A stretch of DNA of 64,000 bases from Candidatus Hydrothermarchaeum profundi (GCA_002011125.2 MTMF02000009.1:96001-160000), one strand, 5' to 3'. Positions 32,591 to 62,138 are shown, counted from the stretch's first letter. Notes: a model not told the origin generated them from the sequence alone. A program made the numbers and translations.

Positions 32591-33292
32591 TTATTTACCT
32601 CTAAAAAAAGCCTTATCTACATTGCAACTGATGATCTTAACCAGCTTTTTCATATCATCATCGCTTAAAACTCTCGAATTCCTAAGGCCCCTGTCCATAG
32701 CAAATCTCGGCTGGAATTTCTGTAATACGTAAAGTTTAGCTCCTTTTATATCCCTCGAAATTTGCTCTATGTCCCTAAAAGTATGTAAAGACGGAACTAC
32801 AGTCGTCCTAAACTCGTACTCTACTCCACTATTCTTTATTAAATTTACACTCTCTCTAATCTTATCAACTTCGCATCGCACTCCACTGACTTCAGAATAC
32901 TGCTCTTCATTTAAGGGAGCTTTTATGTCCATAGCAATATAGTCCACAAGGTCTTTTTCCAAAAGCCTTCTAACAACTGTAGGGTTAGTGCCATTCGTAT
33001 CGAGTTTTATCTTTATCCCCAGCTTCTTCACTCTCTCGCAAAACTTATCTAGTCCTTTTTGTAATGTTGGCTCACCGCCTGTAATACAAACTCCATCTAT
33101 AAAGTCATTATGCTTAGTGAGAAAATCAAAAATTTCCTCTTCTTTAACATCTTCATACTGCTCAGGGTTAAGAACTAACCCATGATTATGGCAAAAAGGA
33201 CATCGTAGGTTACATCCCGGAGTAAAGACTGTGCATGCTACCTTTCCATCCCAATCTAGGAAAGTTGTATCGATAAATCCTTTAATTTGCAT
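32591..33292 (-). CDS. nrdG: Anaerobic RNR activating enzyme (radical SAM)
   Basis: CNLRCPFCHN, TGGEPT, LDTNG, EFRTT. Confidence 0.92.
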   Translation of the reverse strand: MQIKGFIDTTFLDWDGKVACTVFTPGCNLRCPFCHNHGLVLNPEQYEDVKEEEIFDFLTKHNDFIDGVCITGGEPTLQKGLDKFCERVKKLGIKIKLDTNGTNPTVVRRLLEKDLVDYIAMDIKAPLNEEQYSEVSGVRCEVDKIRESVNLIKNSGVEYEFRTTVVPSLHTFRDIEQISRDIKGAKLYVLQKFQPRFAMDRGLRNSRVLSDDDMKKLVKIISCNVDKAFFRGK

Positions 33293-33528
33293 ATCTCATT
33301 CCTGTCCGGTATCTCTCCTCTCCAAGAGCGAAGCTCATTATCATCATCATCAACTATAATTGTAGTAGGAGTTGAAAGCACGCTATAAAATGCTGCTTCT
33401 GCCATTCCATCCACGTCTTCAATGTTAAAGTACTCAACCGCGATTCCATCTTTCTCTAAACTTTTACAGATTTCTTTCGTAGGGGGACATTTAGAGCAAT
33501 TTTCTTGCCAGAATAGCTTGACTTTCAT
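33256..33528 (-). CDS. nrdH: NrdH-like thioredoxin/glutaredoxin
   Basis: CSKC redox motif, cis-Pro motif STPT; lies between nrdD and nrdG. Confidence 0.8.
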   Translation of the reverse strand: MKVKLFWQENCSKCPPTKEICKSLEKDGIAVEYFNIEDVDGMAEAAFYSVLSTPTTIIVDDDDNELRSWRGEIPDRNEICKLKDLSIQLS

Positions 33529-33546
33529 TTCAGTTACCTCCGAACT

Positions 33547-33578
33547 AAAAAATTTGAGGGACCTCTCCTCCTCTCAAA
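33547..33578 (-). terminator. Hairpin plus U-tract inside the nrd operon
   Basis: Minus-strand RNA UUUGAGAGGA-GGAGAGG-UCCCUCAAA followed by UUUUUU. Confidence 0.5.
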
Positions 33579-33590
33579 ACGCGGGGTTAC

Positions 33591-33740
33591 TTAGTTGGCG
33601 AAATGCCATCTATCCCTCGCCATCCGGTCCCTCAGTTCTCCTATTTTTCCCTTATTCCAACCTTCTACTTTTGAGAAAAACCCTGTCACTCTCGTGATGT
33701 GTTCTACGTTTTCTGAGCCACAGCATGGACATCTATCCAT
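33591..33740 (-). CDS. Stand-alone glycyl-radical/Zn half-site peptide of class III RNR (49 aa)
   Basis: MDRCPCCGSENVEHITRVTGFFSKVEGWNKGKIGELRDR...; RVTGF glycyl-radical motif; perfect SD AGGAGGTGA at 33746-33754. Confidence 0.88.
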   Translation of the reverse strand: MDRCPCCGSENVEHITRVTGFFSKVEGWNKGKIGELRDRMARDRWHFAN

Positions 33741-33756
33741 CTTTTTCACCTCCTTT

Positions 33757-35697
33757 TTATAGTCCTCTTGTTGTACGCCCACAATCCAGGCAGCTTGTAA
33801 ACTCGGGGCTAAATGCGATTTGATCGTTTTGAGTATTTTTGAATGTTTTAACTACAAAACTCGCTATTCCGCCTGGATCAGGCCTCGCTTCACCAATCCA
33901 TATATGGGAGAGCGATCCTGCTTCTATTAATGGGTGAAACATTCCTTCTTTTTTAACTCTCTCAATCGGGCTTAGAGGCACTCCAACGTTAAGATAAGTC
34001 GAATTAGTATAATAAATTTCATTTTTTTCAACAATCCCTTTAACTACCGTAAGCGCTTCGTCTCTGTAATGCTCCAAATCTAGTTTGGCCATTCTATAAG
34101 CAGTACTTTCCGCGGGAGTTTGCTCTAGAACAAATCTAAGTCCATATTTCTCCCCAAGTCTTTCTGCCTCTTTTTTCATGAAAGCAATCACTCTTAGACC
34201 AAATTTCAAGGCTTGATTTGACTCATGCATCTCCTCTCCAGTATGGTATTGTACGAGCTCGTTTAAACCCACCATCCCAAAGAGGAAAGTTGCTCTGTGC
34301 AATCTATAATATGGTTCTCCATCTCTATTCATAGAGAGCAAGCTTAGGGGGCCCTGATTTTTCATGTCCAATAATTTCTTAATAAAGTTCCTCTTGTAGA
34401 CATGTGCTCTAGCCATAAGCTCCATTCTTTCAGTTATTATCTCGAAGAGCCTCTCATCACTTCCGCCCGCTTCATACGCCACTCTCGGGAGGTTGAGGGT
34501 TACATTTTGCATGGCTGAATAGCGCATCTTCCATGGAGTTTTTGCATCCTCAAAATCTGATTTCTCAAGCTTAAAGGAAAGCCGGCAGCACTCACTTATC
34601 TTTGCTGTTTCACCCCGGTCGAATACGTAATAAGTGTTACCTTTATCAGAAGAAACATCAGAGATTAGGTAAAGGAAATCCTCGTATCCTTCCGTTTTGA
34701 ATAATCTCTCTGTTATGTGTACCTGAGGTTTGGGGAAAAAGAAGGGTCTTCCAAGGCCATCACCTTCTTTGTATACTTTGAAAAGCGCTATAGCAAATTT
34801 CTGAGATTCTTCGATATAATCCTCATAGTTATTCCCCGTAAATTTTCCTCCAGGACCTATAGCAGGAACTCCAATAAAGTGTTTTGGTATTTCCCAATAT
34901 ATATTCAAATCAGAGAATATAGACTGCCCCCCACGAGCCACGCTTTGCTGAGCAAACTCAAAGATAAGCATCTGTGCTAACTGTTCTAGTTTCTCATTAT
35001 CCACTCCTACAAGATAAGGTGCAAAAAATAGGTTTACTGCGTCCCATCCGATAGCTCCCGCAAAATTGCCTTGAAGTGCTGCAGAAAACTTTATCATTTG
35101 CCCTATTAGAACTTCAGGATGTTTAGCTGGCTTTGATATAGATATTGCGTTAGGGAGGCTTAAACCAAACTTTTTTACATATTCTAGCGAGTTTCCAGAA
35201 CAGTATGGCCTATCTATCATTCCTAAATCATGTAAATGGAAATCCCCTTTCTCATGAGCTACAGCAATTTCTGGAGGAAATATTTTTAAAAGTGCATATT
35301 GCTTCTTTATTGACTCTGCCAAGGTTAGATTCGTAGCTTCAGGGCCATGAGGTACATTGGCGTTTTCTCTATTTCGTGATATAAGCATTTGATCTACATC
35401 ATATATTGGTAACCCTAACCGGGTATGCTGTTTTCTCTCCTCTTCCAATCCATATTCTATGAGTTTCCCATTTACAACTTCACGTATTAGAGGAGCCGTG
35501 ATAAACTTTATCTTAGATTTAATTATGGTTTCTTCGACTTCCTTACTTATTTTTTCAGCAAGTTCGGGGGATATGGTGGTTTCTCTAAGAAGTGCTTCCA
35601 CTATACTTTTTCTGTCCCATTTAACTACATCCTCTCTTGAAACCTTAACAAAGAGGGCAGCATCGGTTGAATCGTTTGAAACTATCATTCCAATCAC
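33757..35697 (-). CDS. nrdD: Class III (anaerobic) ribonucleoside-triphosphate reductase, catalytic barrel lacking the glycyl-radical tail
   Basis: ATP cone, HLHDL, RPYC, SECCRL finger loop, EQTPAESTAYR, YYTNS; ends at CLDCGRTTRGL-stop. Confidence 0.92.
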   Translation of the reverse strand: MIGMIVSNDSTDAALFVKVSREDVVKWDRKSIVEALLRETTISPELAEKISKEVEETIIKSKIKFITAPLIREVVNGKLIEYGLEEERKQHTRLGLPIYDVDQMLISRNRENANVPHGPEATNLTLAESIKKQYALLKIFPPEIAVAHEKGDFHLHDLGMIDRPYCSGNSLEYVKKFGLSLPNAISISKPAKHPEVLIGQMIKFSAALQGNFAGAIGWDAVNLFFAPYLVGVDNEKLEQLAQMLIFEFAQQSVARGGQSIFSDLNIYWEIPKHFIGVPAIGPGGKFTGNNYEDYIEESQKFAIALFKVYKEGDGLGRPFFFPKPQVHITERLFKTEGYEDFLYLISDVSSDKGNTYYVFDRGETAKISECCRLSFKLEKSDFEDAKTPWKMRYSAMQNVTLNLPRVAYEAGGSDERLFEIITERMELMARAHVYKRNFIKKLLDMKNQGPLSLLSMNRDGEPYYRLHRATFLFGMVGLNELVQYHTGEEMHESNQALKFGLRVIAFMKKEAERLGEKYGLRFVLEQTPAESTAYRMAKLDLEHYRDEALTVVKGIVEKNEIYYTNSTYLNVGVPLSPIERVKKEGMFHPLIEAGSLSHIWIGEARPDPGGIASFVVKTFKNTQNDQIAFSPEFTSCLDCGRTTRGL

Positions 35698-37403: not shown

Positions 37404-37685
37404 TTATTTCTTTTTTAACAGCTCGTTGAGTTGCTTTTCTTGGACATATCCTTCAACTTTTATATCGACGTTTTCTATACCTTTGATCTCTTTTATCTTC
37501 TCTTTAATAGCAAAAGCAAGCTGTGTACCCAACGGGCAGTAGGGGCTTGAGGGAATGAAAGTTAAACTGACATTACCATCTTTGACGGAGAGGTCCTTTA
37601 TTAATCCCATATCATAAACATTCATATTGGTATGTGGGTCCATAACCTTTTTGAGACTTTGAATAACTTCATCCTCAGAAACCAT
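37404..37685 (-). CDS. DUF59/SufT-like metal-sulfur cluster assembly factor
   Basis: LKKVMDP...NVYDMGLI, SPYCPL. Confidence 0.85.
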   Translation of the reverse strand: MVSEDEVIQSLKKVMDPHTNMNVYDMGLIKDLSVKDGNVSLTFIPSSPYCPLGTQLAFAIKEKIKEIKGIENVDIKVEGYVQEKQLNELLKKK

Positions 37686-37694
37686 ATTGTCACC

Positions 37695-37919
37695 TCACTT
37701 TTTTTTAAGTTCTTTTAACTTTTCTTCTCCTACGCATTTCTCTGCAAATGAGCACCACTGAACACATGAACTAAGATCCCGGTATACAACTCCCCCACAT
37801 TCACATTCAGCTTTTGTCTCGTCAGTAAAGATCTCAACATCCTTGCCGCATTTTGGACAAGGCAACAATTCTATAGTTGGCCTCAATACACCAGAACTGC
37901 CTGGACATCTCATCTCCAT
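37695..37919 (-). CDS. Small Cys-rich (Zn/Fe-S) protein
   Basis: CPG...CPKCG..VEIF.DE....C.CG...CVQWC..A..C; 8 Cys in 74 aa. Confidence 0.75.
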   Translation of the reverse strand: MEMRCPGSSGVLRPTIELLPCPKCGKDVEIFTDETKAECECGGVVYRDLSSCVQWCSFAEKCVGEEKLKELKKK

Positions 37920-38100
37920 TTTTATCCCCTATATTTATCCATTACTCCTAAGATTTATTTTTGGCTAAATAGATTTTTAATTAATAAGATTTAGTTAACA
38001 TATATAAAGTTAATTGCTATAAAATATAATGATTAATTAGATATGTATTTGTTTTAAAAGAAAAAGATTTATAAAGTAGAATAATATATAGGCTATAAAT

Positions 38101-38679
38101 ATGCTAAAAGAAAAACCTGATTTCGATAAAAAAGATAGACAAATATTATCGCTTTTTAGAGAGAATCCTGAAATTTCACAGAGCGAAATTGCCGAGAAAA
38201 TAGGTATTTCTCAGCCATCTGTAGGGGTTAGGTTGAAGAAATTAAGGAATAAGGGAGCTATTTCTCATGTTGTTGGGATGAATTTCAAACGAGTTGGGCT
38301 TTATTTAGCAAAAGTCGACCTTACAACAAAAGATACATCTAAAGTATTAAATTTCTTTAGAGACTGTCCTTATTTCCTAAATGGGCTAATAACCTCCGGA
38401 AAGTATAATTTATGCCTCTTTTTTATGAGCGAGGATATTATATCGCTGGAAGCAATAGTAGACGCTCATTTAAGGCAAAACCCAGATGTAACAGATATCG
38501 ACTTTAACATTGTTATAAGTCCTGTAAGTGACCTTGTATTTCCGGTAAGAATGAATTTTGAGAAAAAGTCTGTACCTCCCTGTGGTTATAAAAAAACCTG
38601 TGCAAAATGCTCATATTATACTCCTGAGCACTGCCTTGGTTGTCCAGTAACGGGCCATTATCGTGGGAAGTTGTGGTAA
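38101..38679 (+). CDS. Lrp/AsnC-family regulator with C-terminal four-Cys cluster motif
   Basis: DKKDRQIL...SQSEIAEKIGISQPSV HTH, RAM-like domain, tail C-x5-CxxC-x7-CLGCP. Confidence 0.85.
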   Translation: MLKEKPDFDKKDRQILSLFRENPEISQSEIAEKIGISQPSVGVRLKKLRNKGAISHVVGMNFKRVGLYLAKVDLTTKDTSKVLNFFRDCPYFLNGLITSGKYNLCLFFMSEDIISLEAIVDAHLRQNPDVTDIDFNIVISPVSDLVFPVRMNFEKKSVPPCGYKKTCAKCSYYTPEHCLGCPVTGHYRGKLW

Positions 38680-38736
38680 AAAAAGGGGAGAGGACTCCTC
38701 AAGGAAGGAGAGGAGGAGAGAATTTTCGGAGTCCCC
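38678..38736 (-). ncRNA. Candidate ~59-nt small RNA (stem with K-loop-like motif and pyrimidine-rich loop)
   Basis: TATATA box at 38761-38766, 24 nt upstream of GGGGACUCC; 9-bp stem with GGAGUCCUC; ends in U7; no credible ORF. Confidence 0.5.
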
Positions 38737-38870
38737 ATAATAAAACAATATTAGATAGCTTATATATTTTTCTGTTATAAAATATATGTAATATATCATA
38801 TTTGATTATAAAAAATTGTAAAATTGCCTAGAGAATTTATTTACTAAAATTTAGCATTATTAAAAAAGTT

Positions 38871-39392
38871 TTAAAACTCTATGCCCTCCTGAGCCTCAAT
38901 ACCTTTTTCATACGGATGCTTCACAAAACACATTTCTGTAACCAAATCAGCCTTCTCGATAAACTCTTTTGGTGCCCTTCTACCAGTTAACACTACGACA
39001 GTCTCCTCTGGGATTTCTTCAAGCAAGGCTAGAACCTCTTCTTTTTTAACGATATTAAAGTGGGCTGCGAGATTAATTTCATCTAATATCAAAAGTCTAG
39101 GTTTCATCTTCAGGATTTTTCTAGCAAATTTAAGTCCTTCCGAAGCAAGTTCAAAGTCTTTTGGTGACGGATTCCTAAAATCAATAAACTCCTTACGCCC
39201 AAACTGATAAATTTCGTATTCTGGAGCTAGTCTTTCTTTTATCTTATATTCACCTACAAATTTCCTACCTTTCATAAACTGGACTATTATGACTTTATAT
39301 CCATGCCCTACCGCCCTTAAGGCCATACCTAATGCATTGGTAGTTTTTCCTTCCCCTTCACCGGTATAAAGATAAATTAAGCCTCTTCTCAT
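38871..39392 (-). CDS. cobO: Cob(I)alamin adenosyltransferase (CobO/BtuR family)
   Basis: YTGEGEGKTT, QFMKG, ILDEI, VLTGR, ADLVTEM; directly downstream of nrdJ. Confidence 0.92.
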   Translation of the reverse strand: MRRGLIYLYTGEGEGKTTNALGMALRAVGHGYKVIIVQFMKGRKFVGEYKIKERLAPEYEIYQFGRKEFIDFRNPSPKDFELASEGLKFARKILKMKPRLLILDEINLAAHFNIVKKEEVLALLEEIPEETVVVLTGRRAPKEFIEKADLVTEMCFVKHPYEKGIEAQEGIEF

Positions 39393-39401
39393 ATTCAAGC
39401 C

Positions 39402-41486
39402 TCATAGTGGGCATTCCCCAGTAATGCAGCCACCAGAGAATTCAGAGTCCGCCACTATCCCCTCCCCCGTTTCTTTTTTTAGACCGCCAACTACTAACAC
39501 CTGTTTTTCTTTACTGCCATAGCGATATACTGTAATGCCCTTGCATTTCATCTTATAAGCCATCATAAAGATTTTCCTGATATCTTCTAAAGTAGCATTA
39601 GCAGGTAAATTAACAGTTTTAGAAACAGCATTATCTACATATTTTTGGAAGGCTGCCTGCATCTTAACATGCCACTCAGGCGCAACATCTAGAGAGGTAA
39701 CAAATACTCTTTTAATATCTTCAGGTATTCCTTGAATGCCTTGGATGGTTCCATAGCGAGAAATCTTTATCATTAGATCATTGCTGTAAAATCCCCTCTC
39801 TTTAGCCACTTCCTCGAATACTGGGTTCACCTCCAACAGCTGGGTTCCCATAACGTTTCTCATAAAGCTCAGTGCAAAGATGGGTTCAATACTGGATGTG
39901 GTGCCAGCAATTATGCTTATAGTCCCAGTCGGTGCAATGCTATTCACAGTCGCATTCCTCATTCCTTTATATTTCCCCTTCCAAATGCTTTTTTCAAAAT
40001 TGGGAAAAGATCCGCGCTCTTCAGCAAGCTCTAATGACTTTTTTCTGGACTCCTCGCTTATGAATTTCATTATCTTCTCAGCGGTCTTTAAAGCTTCCTT
40101 AGAGTCATAAGGGATAGAGAGCTTCGCCAGCATCTCAGCAAGCCCCATAACTCCTAGACCTATTTTCCGATTATTCTTAGTGGTTATCTCTATTTGTTTG
40201 ATGGGATACTTGTTCGCATCAATAACGTTATCCAGAAAATGAATTCCAAGCCTAATGGTTTCTCTTAGTTTCTCCCAATCTATCTCTCCATCCTTCACCA
40301 TCTTAGAGAGATTAACTGAACCTAGATTACATGACTCATAGGGTAAAAGGGGAACCTCCCCACAGGGGTTAGTGCTTTCTATAACACCAAGTTTTCTCAA
40401 TGGATGCCTCCGATTAATTTCATCCAAAAAAACTAAACCTGGGTCACCAGTGCGCCAAGCCATGGTCACTATTAGGTCAAAAACATCTCGCGCCCTCAAT
40501 TTTCCTACAGGCTTCCCAGTTCTAGGATTAATTAATTCATATTCCTCATCTTTTTTTACTGCCTCCATAAATACGTCAGTTACCCCCACCGATATGTTAA
40601 AGTTGTCCAAAAATCCTTCTTTCTCCTTAGCTGTTATAAACTCTATAATATCAGGGTGGTCCACTCTAAGAATACCCATATTAGCTCCTCTTCGTCTACC
40701 TCCCTGCTTTATCACCTCAGTTGCCTGATCAAATACACGCATAAATGAGACCGGTCCTGAAGCGACTCCTTTGGTTGTACGTACAATGTCTCCTCTAGGT
40801 CTTAGCCTAGAAAACGAAAAACCTGTTCCCCCACCAGACTGGTGTATTAGACTCATATCCCTCAATGTCTCAAATATGCTCTTCAAAGAATCTTCAATTG
40901 GGAGGACAAAACAAGCACTTAACTGCCCAAGATCCGTACCTGCATTCATGAGAGTCGGAGAATTTGGTAGAAAATTAAGAGATGCCATGGCATTATAGAA
41001 ACTCTCTTCAGACTTCTCTACGTCCCCACCATATCTCTTATCTATTGCTGCGATAGCCTTAGCTACCCTCCTAAACATCCCAGAAGGAGTTTCTATTATA
41101 TTTCCGTTTTCATCCTTTAAGAGATAACGCCTTTCCAGTACCCTAATCGCATTTAGGTTTAGCTTAAGTTCGTCTTTTTCAACTCCCAAAAGTTTTTTAG
41201 CTTCTCTTACCTCAGTTCGCTTTTGTCTATAAAGAATGTATGCCTTAGCTACTCTTGCATGGCCATTCTTAATTAATACCTCCTCAACTATGTCCTGAAC
41301 ATCCTCAACGCTGGGGATAGCATTCTTGAATCTCTCTTTGAGAATTTCAACTACTTGTTGAGACATCTCCCTAGCAAGGTCTCCATCCCTTTCTTTAACA
41401 GCTAGGATAGCTTTTTGTATTGCAATAGTTATCTTTTGCGAATCAAACGGGACTAGTCTTCCATCTCTCTTGCGTATTTTTTCCAT
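39402..41486 (-). CDS. nrdJ: Class II (adenosylcobalamin-dependent) ribonucleotide reductase with ATP cone
   Basis: IRKRDG ATP cone, [33 protein letters not shown]-terminal Cys pair CITGEC; no intein seen. Confidence 0.94.
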
Positions 41487-41635
41487 TTTCAAGTCAACTT
41501 TAGGATTGTCATATTTTCTTTAAATATTTAATCCTTAAACTAATAAAAAAAAGAAATATTTATATATTATAAGATTTTTTATTTTTTCCTTATATATTAT
41601 AGTTGTTAATATTATAAATTTATTAGGGCAGACCT

Positions 41636-55058: not shown

Positions 55059-55310
55059 TCACCACCATGCCCTAGAATGCACCAGGAAGCTAACGAGCCC
55101 TGGAGCCATGATGATCCTAGGAAGCCGTTTAAGCCGGTAACCAGTCGGCCCAGGCATGACAAGAGCAACCAGGCTTGGAGCCAGCAAGTAGTAGCATGAC
55201 AGCAGGCCAAAGGGGAAAGAAAAAGGATAGGGTGAAAGCCAAGCGAAGAACAACGAGGCCGGAAGAAGAACCCGCTTGTGTGAATGAAGGGCTACCAGGA
55301 TCGTCTTCAT
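55059..55310 (-). CDS. Hydrophobic hypothetical protein (83 aa)
   Basis: GGAGG SD and ATGA overlap with the upstream ORF; atypical composition. Confidence 0.4.
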   Translation of the reverse strand: MKTILVALHSHKRVLLPASLFFAWLSPYPFSFPFGLLSCYYLLAPSLVALVMPGPTGYRLKRLPRIIMAPGLVSFLVHSRAWW

Positions 55311-55438
55311 ATCCTCCCCTCCTTCTTCAGCTCCTTGAGCCTGGCCTTTATCTCACGCCTATACGCCTCTATCTCCCTTTTCCTCTCCTCAAGGGTAGAC
55401 GGCTTACGCTTTCTCTTGAACAACCTTGGAATCTTCAA
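55307..55438 (-). CDS. 43-aa basic coiled-coil microprotein (not in the track)
   Basis: MKIPRLFKRKRKPSTLEERKREIEAYRREIKARLKELKKEGRI; GGAGGT SD; TTGA and ATGA overlaps on both sides. Confidence 0.6.
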   Translation of the reverse strand: MKIPRLFKRKRKPSTLEERKREIEAYRREIKARLKELKKEGRI

Positions 55439-62067: not shown

Positions 62068-62138
62068 AGCCGAGGAGGGGAGTCGAACCCCTGTAAACCG
62101 ATCTGCAGTCGGTCACATAGCCTCTCTGTCACCTCGGC
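62068..62138 (-). tRNA. tRNA-Cys (GCA)
   Basis: GCCGAGG/CCTCGGC acceptor stem, ACCGA-CTGCAGA-TCGGT anticodon arm, AGGGG-TTCGACT-CCCCT T arm, U73 discriminator; no encoded CCA, no intron. Confidence 0.96.

Follow-up and report, generated by a model that had tools for sequence, protein, structure and literature searches.

Transcripts that overlap at their 3' ends, giving cis-antisense RNA where genes converge, are widespread in archaeal transcriptomes. Small RNAs that pair with ribosome-binding sites through C-rich or CU-rich loops are represented by RsaE/RoxS and 6C RNA in Gram-positive bacteria and by sRNA41 and sRNA162 in Methanosarcina mazei. In the available text of PMC3884654, a K-loop is defined as a k-turn in which a terminal loop takes the place of the C helix, and L7Ae touches its G.A pairs and NC helix; the prediction of k-turns and K-loops is called problematic in the accessible part of PMC5539422, because their sequences vary widely.

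The element described here lies on the minus strand between cobO, the last gene of nrdJ-cobO, and a converging gene for an Lrp/AsnC-type regulator, in a window of 64,000 nt (C9:96001-160000) taken from an assembly of 2,186,281 bases in 19 contigs with 39.1% G+C. It is read, tentatively, as a lineage-specific, stand-alone small RNA unit of about 55-59 nt that would most likely act in cis on the convergent Lrp transcript. Like the cis-antisense RNAs of converging gene ends, the candidate lies opposite its neighbour's 3' tail and would be perfectly complementary to it if the neighbour reads through; in contrast to them, it is structured and very short, and its end coincides exactly with the neighbour's stop codon, which would limit the overlap to untranslated sequence. 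It shares a terminal U7 with archaeal oligo-T intrinsic terminators, of which further T6 runs after cobO are also reminiscent, whereas a hairpin ahead of the T run is not typical in this genome. The likeness to RsaE/RoxS, 6C RNA, sRNA41 and sRNA162 consists in a short stand-alone RNA with a putative promoter and terminator of its own and in a pyrimidine stretch with an anti-SD core in the predicted loop, but the candidate has no sequence or Rfam relation to these RNAs, forms a single large loop instead of several small C-rich loops, and is without a conserved seed or a ranked target. With the K-loops of archaeal box C'/D' and H/ACA guide RNAs, as far as they are described in the available text of PMC3884654, it has in common the order of helix, GA...GA, which could form tandem sheared G.A pairs, and terminal loop, as well as an archaeal host with L7Ae-family genes; it differs from them in a plain C-G pair beside the putative G.A pairs, in the absence of C, D and ACA boxes, in being unconserved, and in a signature that is common by chance.

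Architecture of the intergenic unit

Every element quoted in an earlier reading of the window, made from the sequence alone (the sequence-only reading), was recovered at its position on the minus strand between the convergent cobO and Lrp/AsnC-type genes (Table 1). The promoter-like box ends 21 nt ahead of G38736, the first base of the stem, and its geometry predicts a transcript start at 38738-38736. The body of the unit is a 51% G+C island after a spacer of 86% A+T, a property without discriminating power (259 such islands, 42 of these tRNAs). The complement of the Lrp stop codon (38677-38679) extends into U7. U7 is longer than the run of at least five T on the transcribed strand by which an archaeal oligo-T terminator is recognised, and would, as in archaeal oligo-T termination, serve as the stop. 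Read on the plus strand, A5 of the box (38771-38767) is also the T5 run that comes first after the Lrp gene. Two T6 runs stand between the cobO stop codon and the box, and since they follow cobO so directly, read-through from cobO is a less likely source of the RNA.

The 211-nt intergenic region has no copies elsewhere in the genome and is therefore not a repeat or a mobile element. The Rfam/Infernal search that had been proposed as a check gave no family at or above the gathering threshold for the candidate unit: only a tRNA (62068-62138) was reported for the whole window, and the unit region, searched at E up to 10, matched only SNORA75 on the plus strand with 23.2 bits against a threshold of 80.

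Table 1. Positions of the intergenic unit and of the genes and sites discussed with it
Feature	Position	Strand	Remarks
nrdJ	39402-41492	minus	
cobO	38871-39398	minus	corrinoid adenosyltransferase; last gene of nrdJ-cobO
BRE/TATA-like promoter element	38758-38773	minus	AGAAAAATATATAAGC; 13.9 bits with tRNA-derived matrix
Stem, 5' arm	38728-38736	minus	GGGGACUCC
Loop, 29 nt	38699-38727	minus	GA, 25-nt A/U then C/U stretch (38725-38701) with CCUCCU, GA
Loop 13-mer	38708-38720	minus	
Stem, 3' arm	38690-38698	minus	GGAGUCCUC; 9-bp stem with one G.U pair
UCCCC and U7	38678-38689	minus	U7 at 38684-38678; putative oligo-U stop
Lrp/AsnC-type regulator gene	38101-38679	plus	convergent; Pfam HTH_24, HTH_AsnC-type, AsnC_trans_reg
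nrdD	33757-35697	minus	class III operon
Purine 13-mer in nrd spacer	33563-33575	minus	between NrdD C-terminal peptide gene and thioredoxin-like gene; 5' arm and loop of weak hairpin
Thioredoxin-like gene	33256-33528	minus	class III nrd operon
Activase gene	32591-33292	minus	class III nrd operon

The predicted start site coincides with an AUG (38738-38736) that is followed by an open frame of 26 codons, and a leaderless mRNA for such a peptide was considered. It is given next to no weight: the frame was rejected because U7 lies within it, it runs antisense into the Lrp gene, it has no relatives, and the other overlapping frame, of 62 aa, is without a Pfam match.

Promoter-like box

The box was scored with a 16-column BRE/TATA matrix trained on the 30 best of 45 upstream regions of tRNAs identified with ARAGORN; the candidate itself was left out of the training. 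With 13.9 bits, its box is on a par with the five best tRNA promoters. The tRNA promoters mostly end 20-25 nt ahead of the mature 5' end, and the box, which agrees with the organism's own consensus, stands at the right distance from the predicted start for an archaeal BRE/TATA promoter. Genome-wide, 44 sites reached at least 13.8 bits, 25 of them in the approximately 10% of the genome outside ORFs of at least 100 aa, a crude gene map by which 'non-coding' sequence also includes small genes; 12 of these 25 lie at most 200 nt upstream of such an ORF. In non-coding segments of at least 30 nt there were 23 such sites, whereas 20 dinucleotide shuffles gave 6.1 on average.

Since the spacer is 86% A+T, local shuffles were run. 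Among 5000 shuffles of the 134-nt spacer, a match arose anywhere on the minus strand with p = 0.0066 and 17-26 nt ahead of the hairpin with p = 0.0004. The A-run of the box doubles as the complement of the Lrp T5 run and was for this reason held fixed in a control, in which randomisation of the remainder completed the box with p = 0.00012. The promoter-like box is thus far above the expectation from composition. Some orphan matrix matches in the genome are complements of T-rich gene ends, or look like those of T-run terminators, and not promoters, and it is on this account that the box is called a probable, rather than a highly probable, active promoter. A separate minus-strand unit, as proposed in the sequence-only reading, is plausible in that a box matching the tRNA promoters is followed, at the correct distance, by a hairpin and U7.

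Hairpin fold

The 71-nt minus-strand stretch folds with -15.2 kcal/mol (z -1.27), and 27 of 200 shuffles folded as well. The 9-bp stem has an ensemble probability of approximately 0.35, against approximately 0.58 at 37 °C for a rival fold in which GGGGA pairs with UCCCC, and the CCUCCU of the loop with GAGGAG. This rival fold leaves neither the 3' GA nor one half of the 13-mer free, and is the minimum-energy structure from 60 °C upward; the mean unpaired probability of the 13-mer is 0.64 at 37 °C. The 63% G+C of the tRNAs points to a warm habitat. Of the two strands, the minus strand forms the better stem, because the G.U pair becomes an A.C mismatch on the plus strand, where the fold (z -0.16) does not use the stem. 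By the folding energy of the 55 nt ahead of it, U7 ranks 17th of 840 non-coding runs of at least six T (mean, -5.6 kcal/mol), so that most such runs in the genome are without a hairpin of this kind. The hairpin is ordinary as a fold and unusual for its place.

These results bear on a reading without any separate RNA, in which the hairpin and U7 are a transcript-end structure only, namely a back-up stop for nrdJ-cobO read-through and part of the Lrp mRNA 3' tail, and the box is idle A/T-rich terminator DNA. The position of the element exactly between converging genes, with U7 abutting the Lrp stop codon, agrees with this, as do the A-run's complementarity to the T5 run that comes first after the Lrp gene, the several other orphan matrix matches that are complements of T-rich gene ends, a fold not significant against shuffles, and the lack of conservation described below. 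However, the box is completed by chance with a probability of just 0.00012 when the A-run is fixed, cobO already has two T6 runs downstream, and most runs of at least six T are without a preceding hairpin, the candidate ranking near the top of the 840. To our knowledge, archaeal termination is generally held not to require a hairpin, which likewise speaks against a mere end structure. This reading, the main rival to a small RNA unit, is regarded as rather doubtful.

Complementarity to the nrd spacer

The sequence-only reading had connected the loop with the class III nrd operon. As it had noticed, the minus-strand word at 33575-33563 is exactly complementary to the 13-mer of the loop (38720-38708). 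The word forms the 5' arm and loop of a hairpin (about 33554-33578) that is weak (z -0.27), with 76 of 200 shuffles doing equally well. Since U6 (33547-33552) follows it, this hairpin could serve as a partial terminator that separates the radical-peptide gene from the thioredoxin-like and activase genes.

The exact 13-mer word occurs at only two places in the 2,186,281-base assembly, one per site, but complementarity of equal length is common for the loop. The uniqueness of the word is misleading, since the loop is a pure pyrimidine tract of 22 nt, as the earlier caveat about low complexity had held, in a genome rich in such tracts (2198 purine/pyrimidine tracts of at least 13 nt, 78 of them within the window). 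Among the G-rich tracts of at least 20 nt, 43 of 44 have a 13-mer in common with another genomic tract, and the tract of the loop has 16 such word matches. Among the maximal exact complements of the 29-nt loop across the genome, a length of 16 nt is reached once, 14 nt five times, 13 nt three times (the nrd site included), 12 nt 13 times and 11 nt 63 times.

An RNAduplex energy scan of 174,790 windows on both strands, which takes no account of target accessibility or of where transcripts begin and end, placed the nrd site (-28.3 kcal/mol) 154th. The trivial top duplex was the perfect antisense on the plus strand (-51.4 kcal/mol for the loop alone). As good as the nrd site or better were 129 distinct sites, approximately one per 17 kb and three in the window, so that one within 5 kb is to be expected often. 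One of these three, the purine-rich start region at 55290-55339 (minus strand; GGAGGGGAGGAUAUG), gave -31.3 kcal/mol with the loop. The 13-nt match to the nrd spacer was judged to be within chance, and with six longer exact complements and 129 equal or better duplex sites in the genome the proposed link to the class III nrd operon was given up.

Search for K-loop and box C/D features

The succession of stem, GA, loop, GA and stem, which had been taken for a K-loop, fits the definition in the available text of PMC3884654, but the signature is common, the rival fold is likelier, and the element is unconserved. GA...GA loop ends were found in 123 of the 15,375 hairpins in the genome with a stem of at least 9 bp and a loop of 10-40 nt (0.8%, or 3-4 per 64-kb window), and the 3' GA is paired with the loop in the rival fold. 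The genome has two L7Ae-family genes. For a comparison of the G.A letters, no related hairpin was found in 37 other genomes of the phylum, in 88 cobO/Lrp loci or in metagenomes. Neither box C (RUGAUGA) nor box D (CUGA), by the consensus in the accessible part of PMC5539422, occurs in 38678-38740; the nearest approach to a C box in the unit is AUGGGGA, without GA at box positions 3-4, and no ACA box precedes the stop signal. Support for a K-loop in this unit does not go beyond the four letters GA...GA.

An L7Ae-bound K-loop small RNA that would open the hairpin between the NrdD-peptide gene and the thioredoxin-like gene (nrdH), and thereby couple the class III activase to the choice of reductase, is accordingly very improbable. 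It would have in its favour the exact 13-nt complement with its word at two sites only, the location of both sites within 5.2 kb and beside the two reductase operons, the topology that agrees with the published K-loop definition as available, and the two L7Ae-family genes. Against these stand the longer complements and the many equal or better duplex sites, the frequency of GA...GA among hairpins, a second unit of the same build without GA...GA, the probability of only approximately 0.35 for the stem that would present the loop, and the absence of the spacer hairpin from the nrd loci, and of the small-RNA hairpin from all loci searched, in relatives. The 25-nt loop is, moreover, much longer than what we take to be the usual size of the K-loops of box C'/D' and H/ACA RNAs. 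A low-complexity match to the nrd spacer that recurs approximately once per 17 kb is the reason for not carrying this account forward.

Comparison with relatives

The relatives comprised 35 genomes of the order and 38 of the phylum. A similar hairpin was found neither 3' of cobO in five relatives' loci nor 3' of the Lrp homologue in 20 loci. The cobO-Lrp neighbourhood exists only in this genome: cobO or nrdJ was present in none of the 20 Lrp loci, and the Lrp gene in none of the 63 cobO loci, 37 of which retain nrdJ (species collection). A purine/pyrimidine tract occurs within 300 nt downstream in 18 of the 63 cobO loci; of six such tract-bearing loci inspected, three, titled Hydrothermarchaeota or Pyrohabitans, have the tract inside a converging coiled-coil gene.

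A covariance model of the 59-nt unit, built on one sequence (self score, 96.1 bits), gave no significant match in the 37 other phylum genomes (best 27.3 bits, inside a 630-aa ORF) and none with E below 0.1 in the 88 cobO/Lrp loci (best 17.4 bits). The nrd spacer hairpin was absent from all 25 of the relatives' nrd loci, where the peptide gene abuts, overlaps or is fused to the next gene. Covariation of the two sites, which the sequence-only reading had named as a check, is impossible, because neither hairpin is present in any relative examined. When 38400-39100 was searched at the DNA level in 40 relatives, matches were confined to the coding flanks and A/T-rich spacer, and a metagenome scan with the Lrp protein gave no relative; scanning metagenomes for both stem arms returned 35 stretches, mostly of high G+C, none with a pyrimidine loop and then a T run.

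Run X2, from a nearly identical strain, has no change across 37449-39013 and is identical over both sites, and thus gives no information on selection. Run X3, approximately 95-98% alike, is without a contig over 38372-38732 and does not cover the hairpin; in a single 4x contig of this run, indels were seen at 33546 and 33579, beside the nrd site.

Similar units and pairing with ribosome-binding sites

A second unit was found at C9:193063-193160 on the plus strand; its promoter-like box scores 11.2 bits, and it has a stem of 13 bp, a 31-nt loop and U7. The CACCUCCUCC in its loop is identical to the 16S rRNA 3' end, and it lies in a gene-poor stretch of approximately 900 nt; at the DNA level, only its A/T-rich upstream part was matched in the order. 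A third promoter-to-T-run unit (C9:704533-704635, plus strand) has a 10-bp stem, a single-stranded C-rich tail (CCCCCUCCCCCUCCAC) and U6, and abuts the stop codon of a converging gene.

The loop might act in trans as an anti-SD RNA, its CCUCCU mimicking the 3' end of 16S rRNA and pairing with the purine-rich ribosome-binding regions of many mRNAs. The 16S rRNA 3' end, located upstream of tRNA-Ala, reads ...GGAUCACCUCCU / CACCUCCU, and genes here use ribosome-binding sites of the GGAGG type; duplexes better than that of the nrd site include the start region at 55290-55339 (-31.3 kcal/mol), the loop of the second unit carries CACCUCCUCC, and CCUCC is present in three of the four structured non-tRNA promoter-to-T-run units. 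However, across the 43 non-tRNA units CCUCC occurs in eight and GGAGG in four, with approximately 4.5 expected, which is not significant, and the 2198 purine/pyrimidine tracts of at least 13 nt make such motifs very common. In addition, the motif is partly paired in the rival fold, neither unit is conserved, and no target is outstanding. Regulation of this kind is considered unlikely.

An extension of the same idea, held to be unlikelier still, is a small class of stand-alone hairpin RNAs that mimic the 16S rRNA 3' end and damp SD-led translation. The unit described here and that at C9:193063-193160 would each have their own BRE/TATA promoter, a long stem, a pyrimidine loop of 25-31 nt with the anti-SD core (CCUCCU and CACCUCCUCC, respectively), and U7; in the former, L7Ae bound to the GA...GA closure might help to keep the shape. 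Rfam catalogues no such class of riboregulator for archaea, and nothing specific on archaeal small RNAs with C-rich anti-SD loops was found in the literature as far as its text was available.

Proposed cis-antisense small RNA

In the preferred reading, a lineage-specific RNA acting in cis on the Lrp transcript, the BRE/TATA promoter at 38773-38758 would start a minus-strand RNA at approximately 38738-38736. The product, a non-coding RNA of about 55-59 nt, would fold into the hairpin with its large pyrimidine loop and end in U7 (38684-38678). Downstream of the Lrp gene the first T5 run is at 38767-38771, so that an mRNA read as far as this would be complementary, in its tail, to the whole of the small RNA. 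The 3' end or the stability of the Lrp transcript could then be affected through a duplex of the two RNAs or through convergent transcription. The Lrp 3' tail is the one partner that needs no further assumptions, and action in cis is for this reason favoured over action on the nrd operon.

The elements and their spacing are present in the DNA as described; that the unit is transcribed and has a function is what we infer from them. Counted for the unit were the score, spacing and shuffle controls of the promoter-like box, the G+C-rich body, the folding rank, the better stem on the minus strand, the T6 runs after cobO and a second unit of the same build at C9:193063-193160. Counted against it were the lack of the hairpin in relatives, the z value of -1.27 and the competition between two folds, the orphan matrix matches that look like terminator complements, as well as the assumption that the Lrp mRNA reaches the overlap. 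When all small-RNA readings are taken together, it is the promoter evidence that makes a real unit fairly probable. Such a unit, would be very young or fast-evolving, and its action in cis on the Lrp transcript is a tentative choice among these readings.

If transcribed, the unit would provide a small regulatory RNA for a phylum of uncultured subsurface archaea, near two reductase operons and a regulator gene; we know of no RNA biology described for this phylum. The main value of the analysis is negative, in that the L7Ae-bound reductase-switch RNA was found to rest on a low-complexity match. The analysis also provided a promoter matrix fit for use and a further candidate RNA of the same build, and with these a small-RNA survey of the lineage becomes directly testable.

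Neighbouring genes

The Lrp/AsnC-type gene has a promoter-like box of its own upstream and an apparently leaderless start. In an NCBIfam search, all matches of its protein were below the cut-offs. At its C-terminus the protein has an additional tail in which five cysteines are arranged as C..C..C and C..C, and this tail is conserved in 15 other genomes of the order, with 53-66% identity over the full length.

Further minus-strand genes lie between the Lrp/AsnC-type gene and the class III nrd operon. The class III reductase in this operon is split (33591-35697, minus strand): an ORF of 646 aa corresponds to positions 2-537 of the 581 in the NrdD model, and a separate gene of 49 codons, with its ATG at 33740 and AAGGAGGUGA ahead of it, corresponds to positions 541-579, the Cys-rich and glycyl-radical end. 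In relatives, this C-terminal end is a separate small frame, is fused to the thioredoxin-like protein, or is contained in a full-length NrdD of 595-772 aa.

The closest relatives of CobO (73-77% identity) are titled Helarchaeota and Methanosarcina, and those titled Hydrothermarchaeota are at 61-63%; cobO was not found in three genomes of the same family (62-82% complete). This pattern of similarity, together with the failure to find cobO within the family, hints at the acquisition of nrdJ-cobO by horizontal transfer. Pairing of the nrdJ-cobO mRNA tail with the operon's own ribosome-binding site was considered and rejected, as nrdJ is without an evident SD and cobO has only GAGG. Elsewhere on the contig, ARAGORN predicted a tRNA-Pyl at C9:1321583, with a strong promoter-like box of 14.4 bits upstream.
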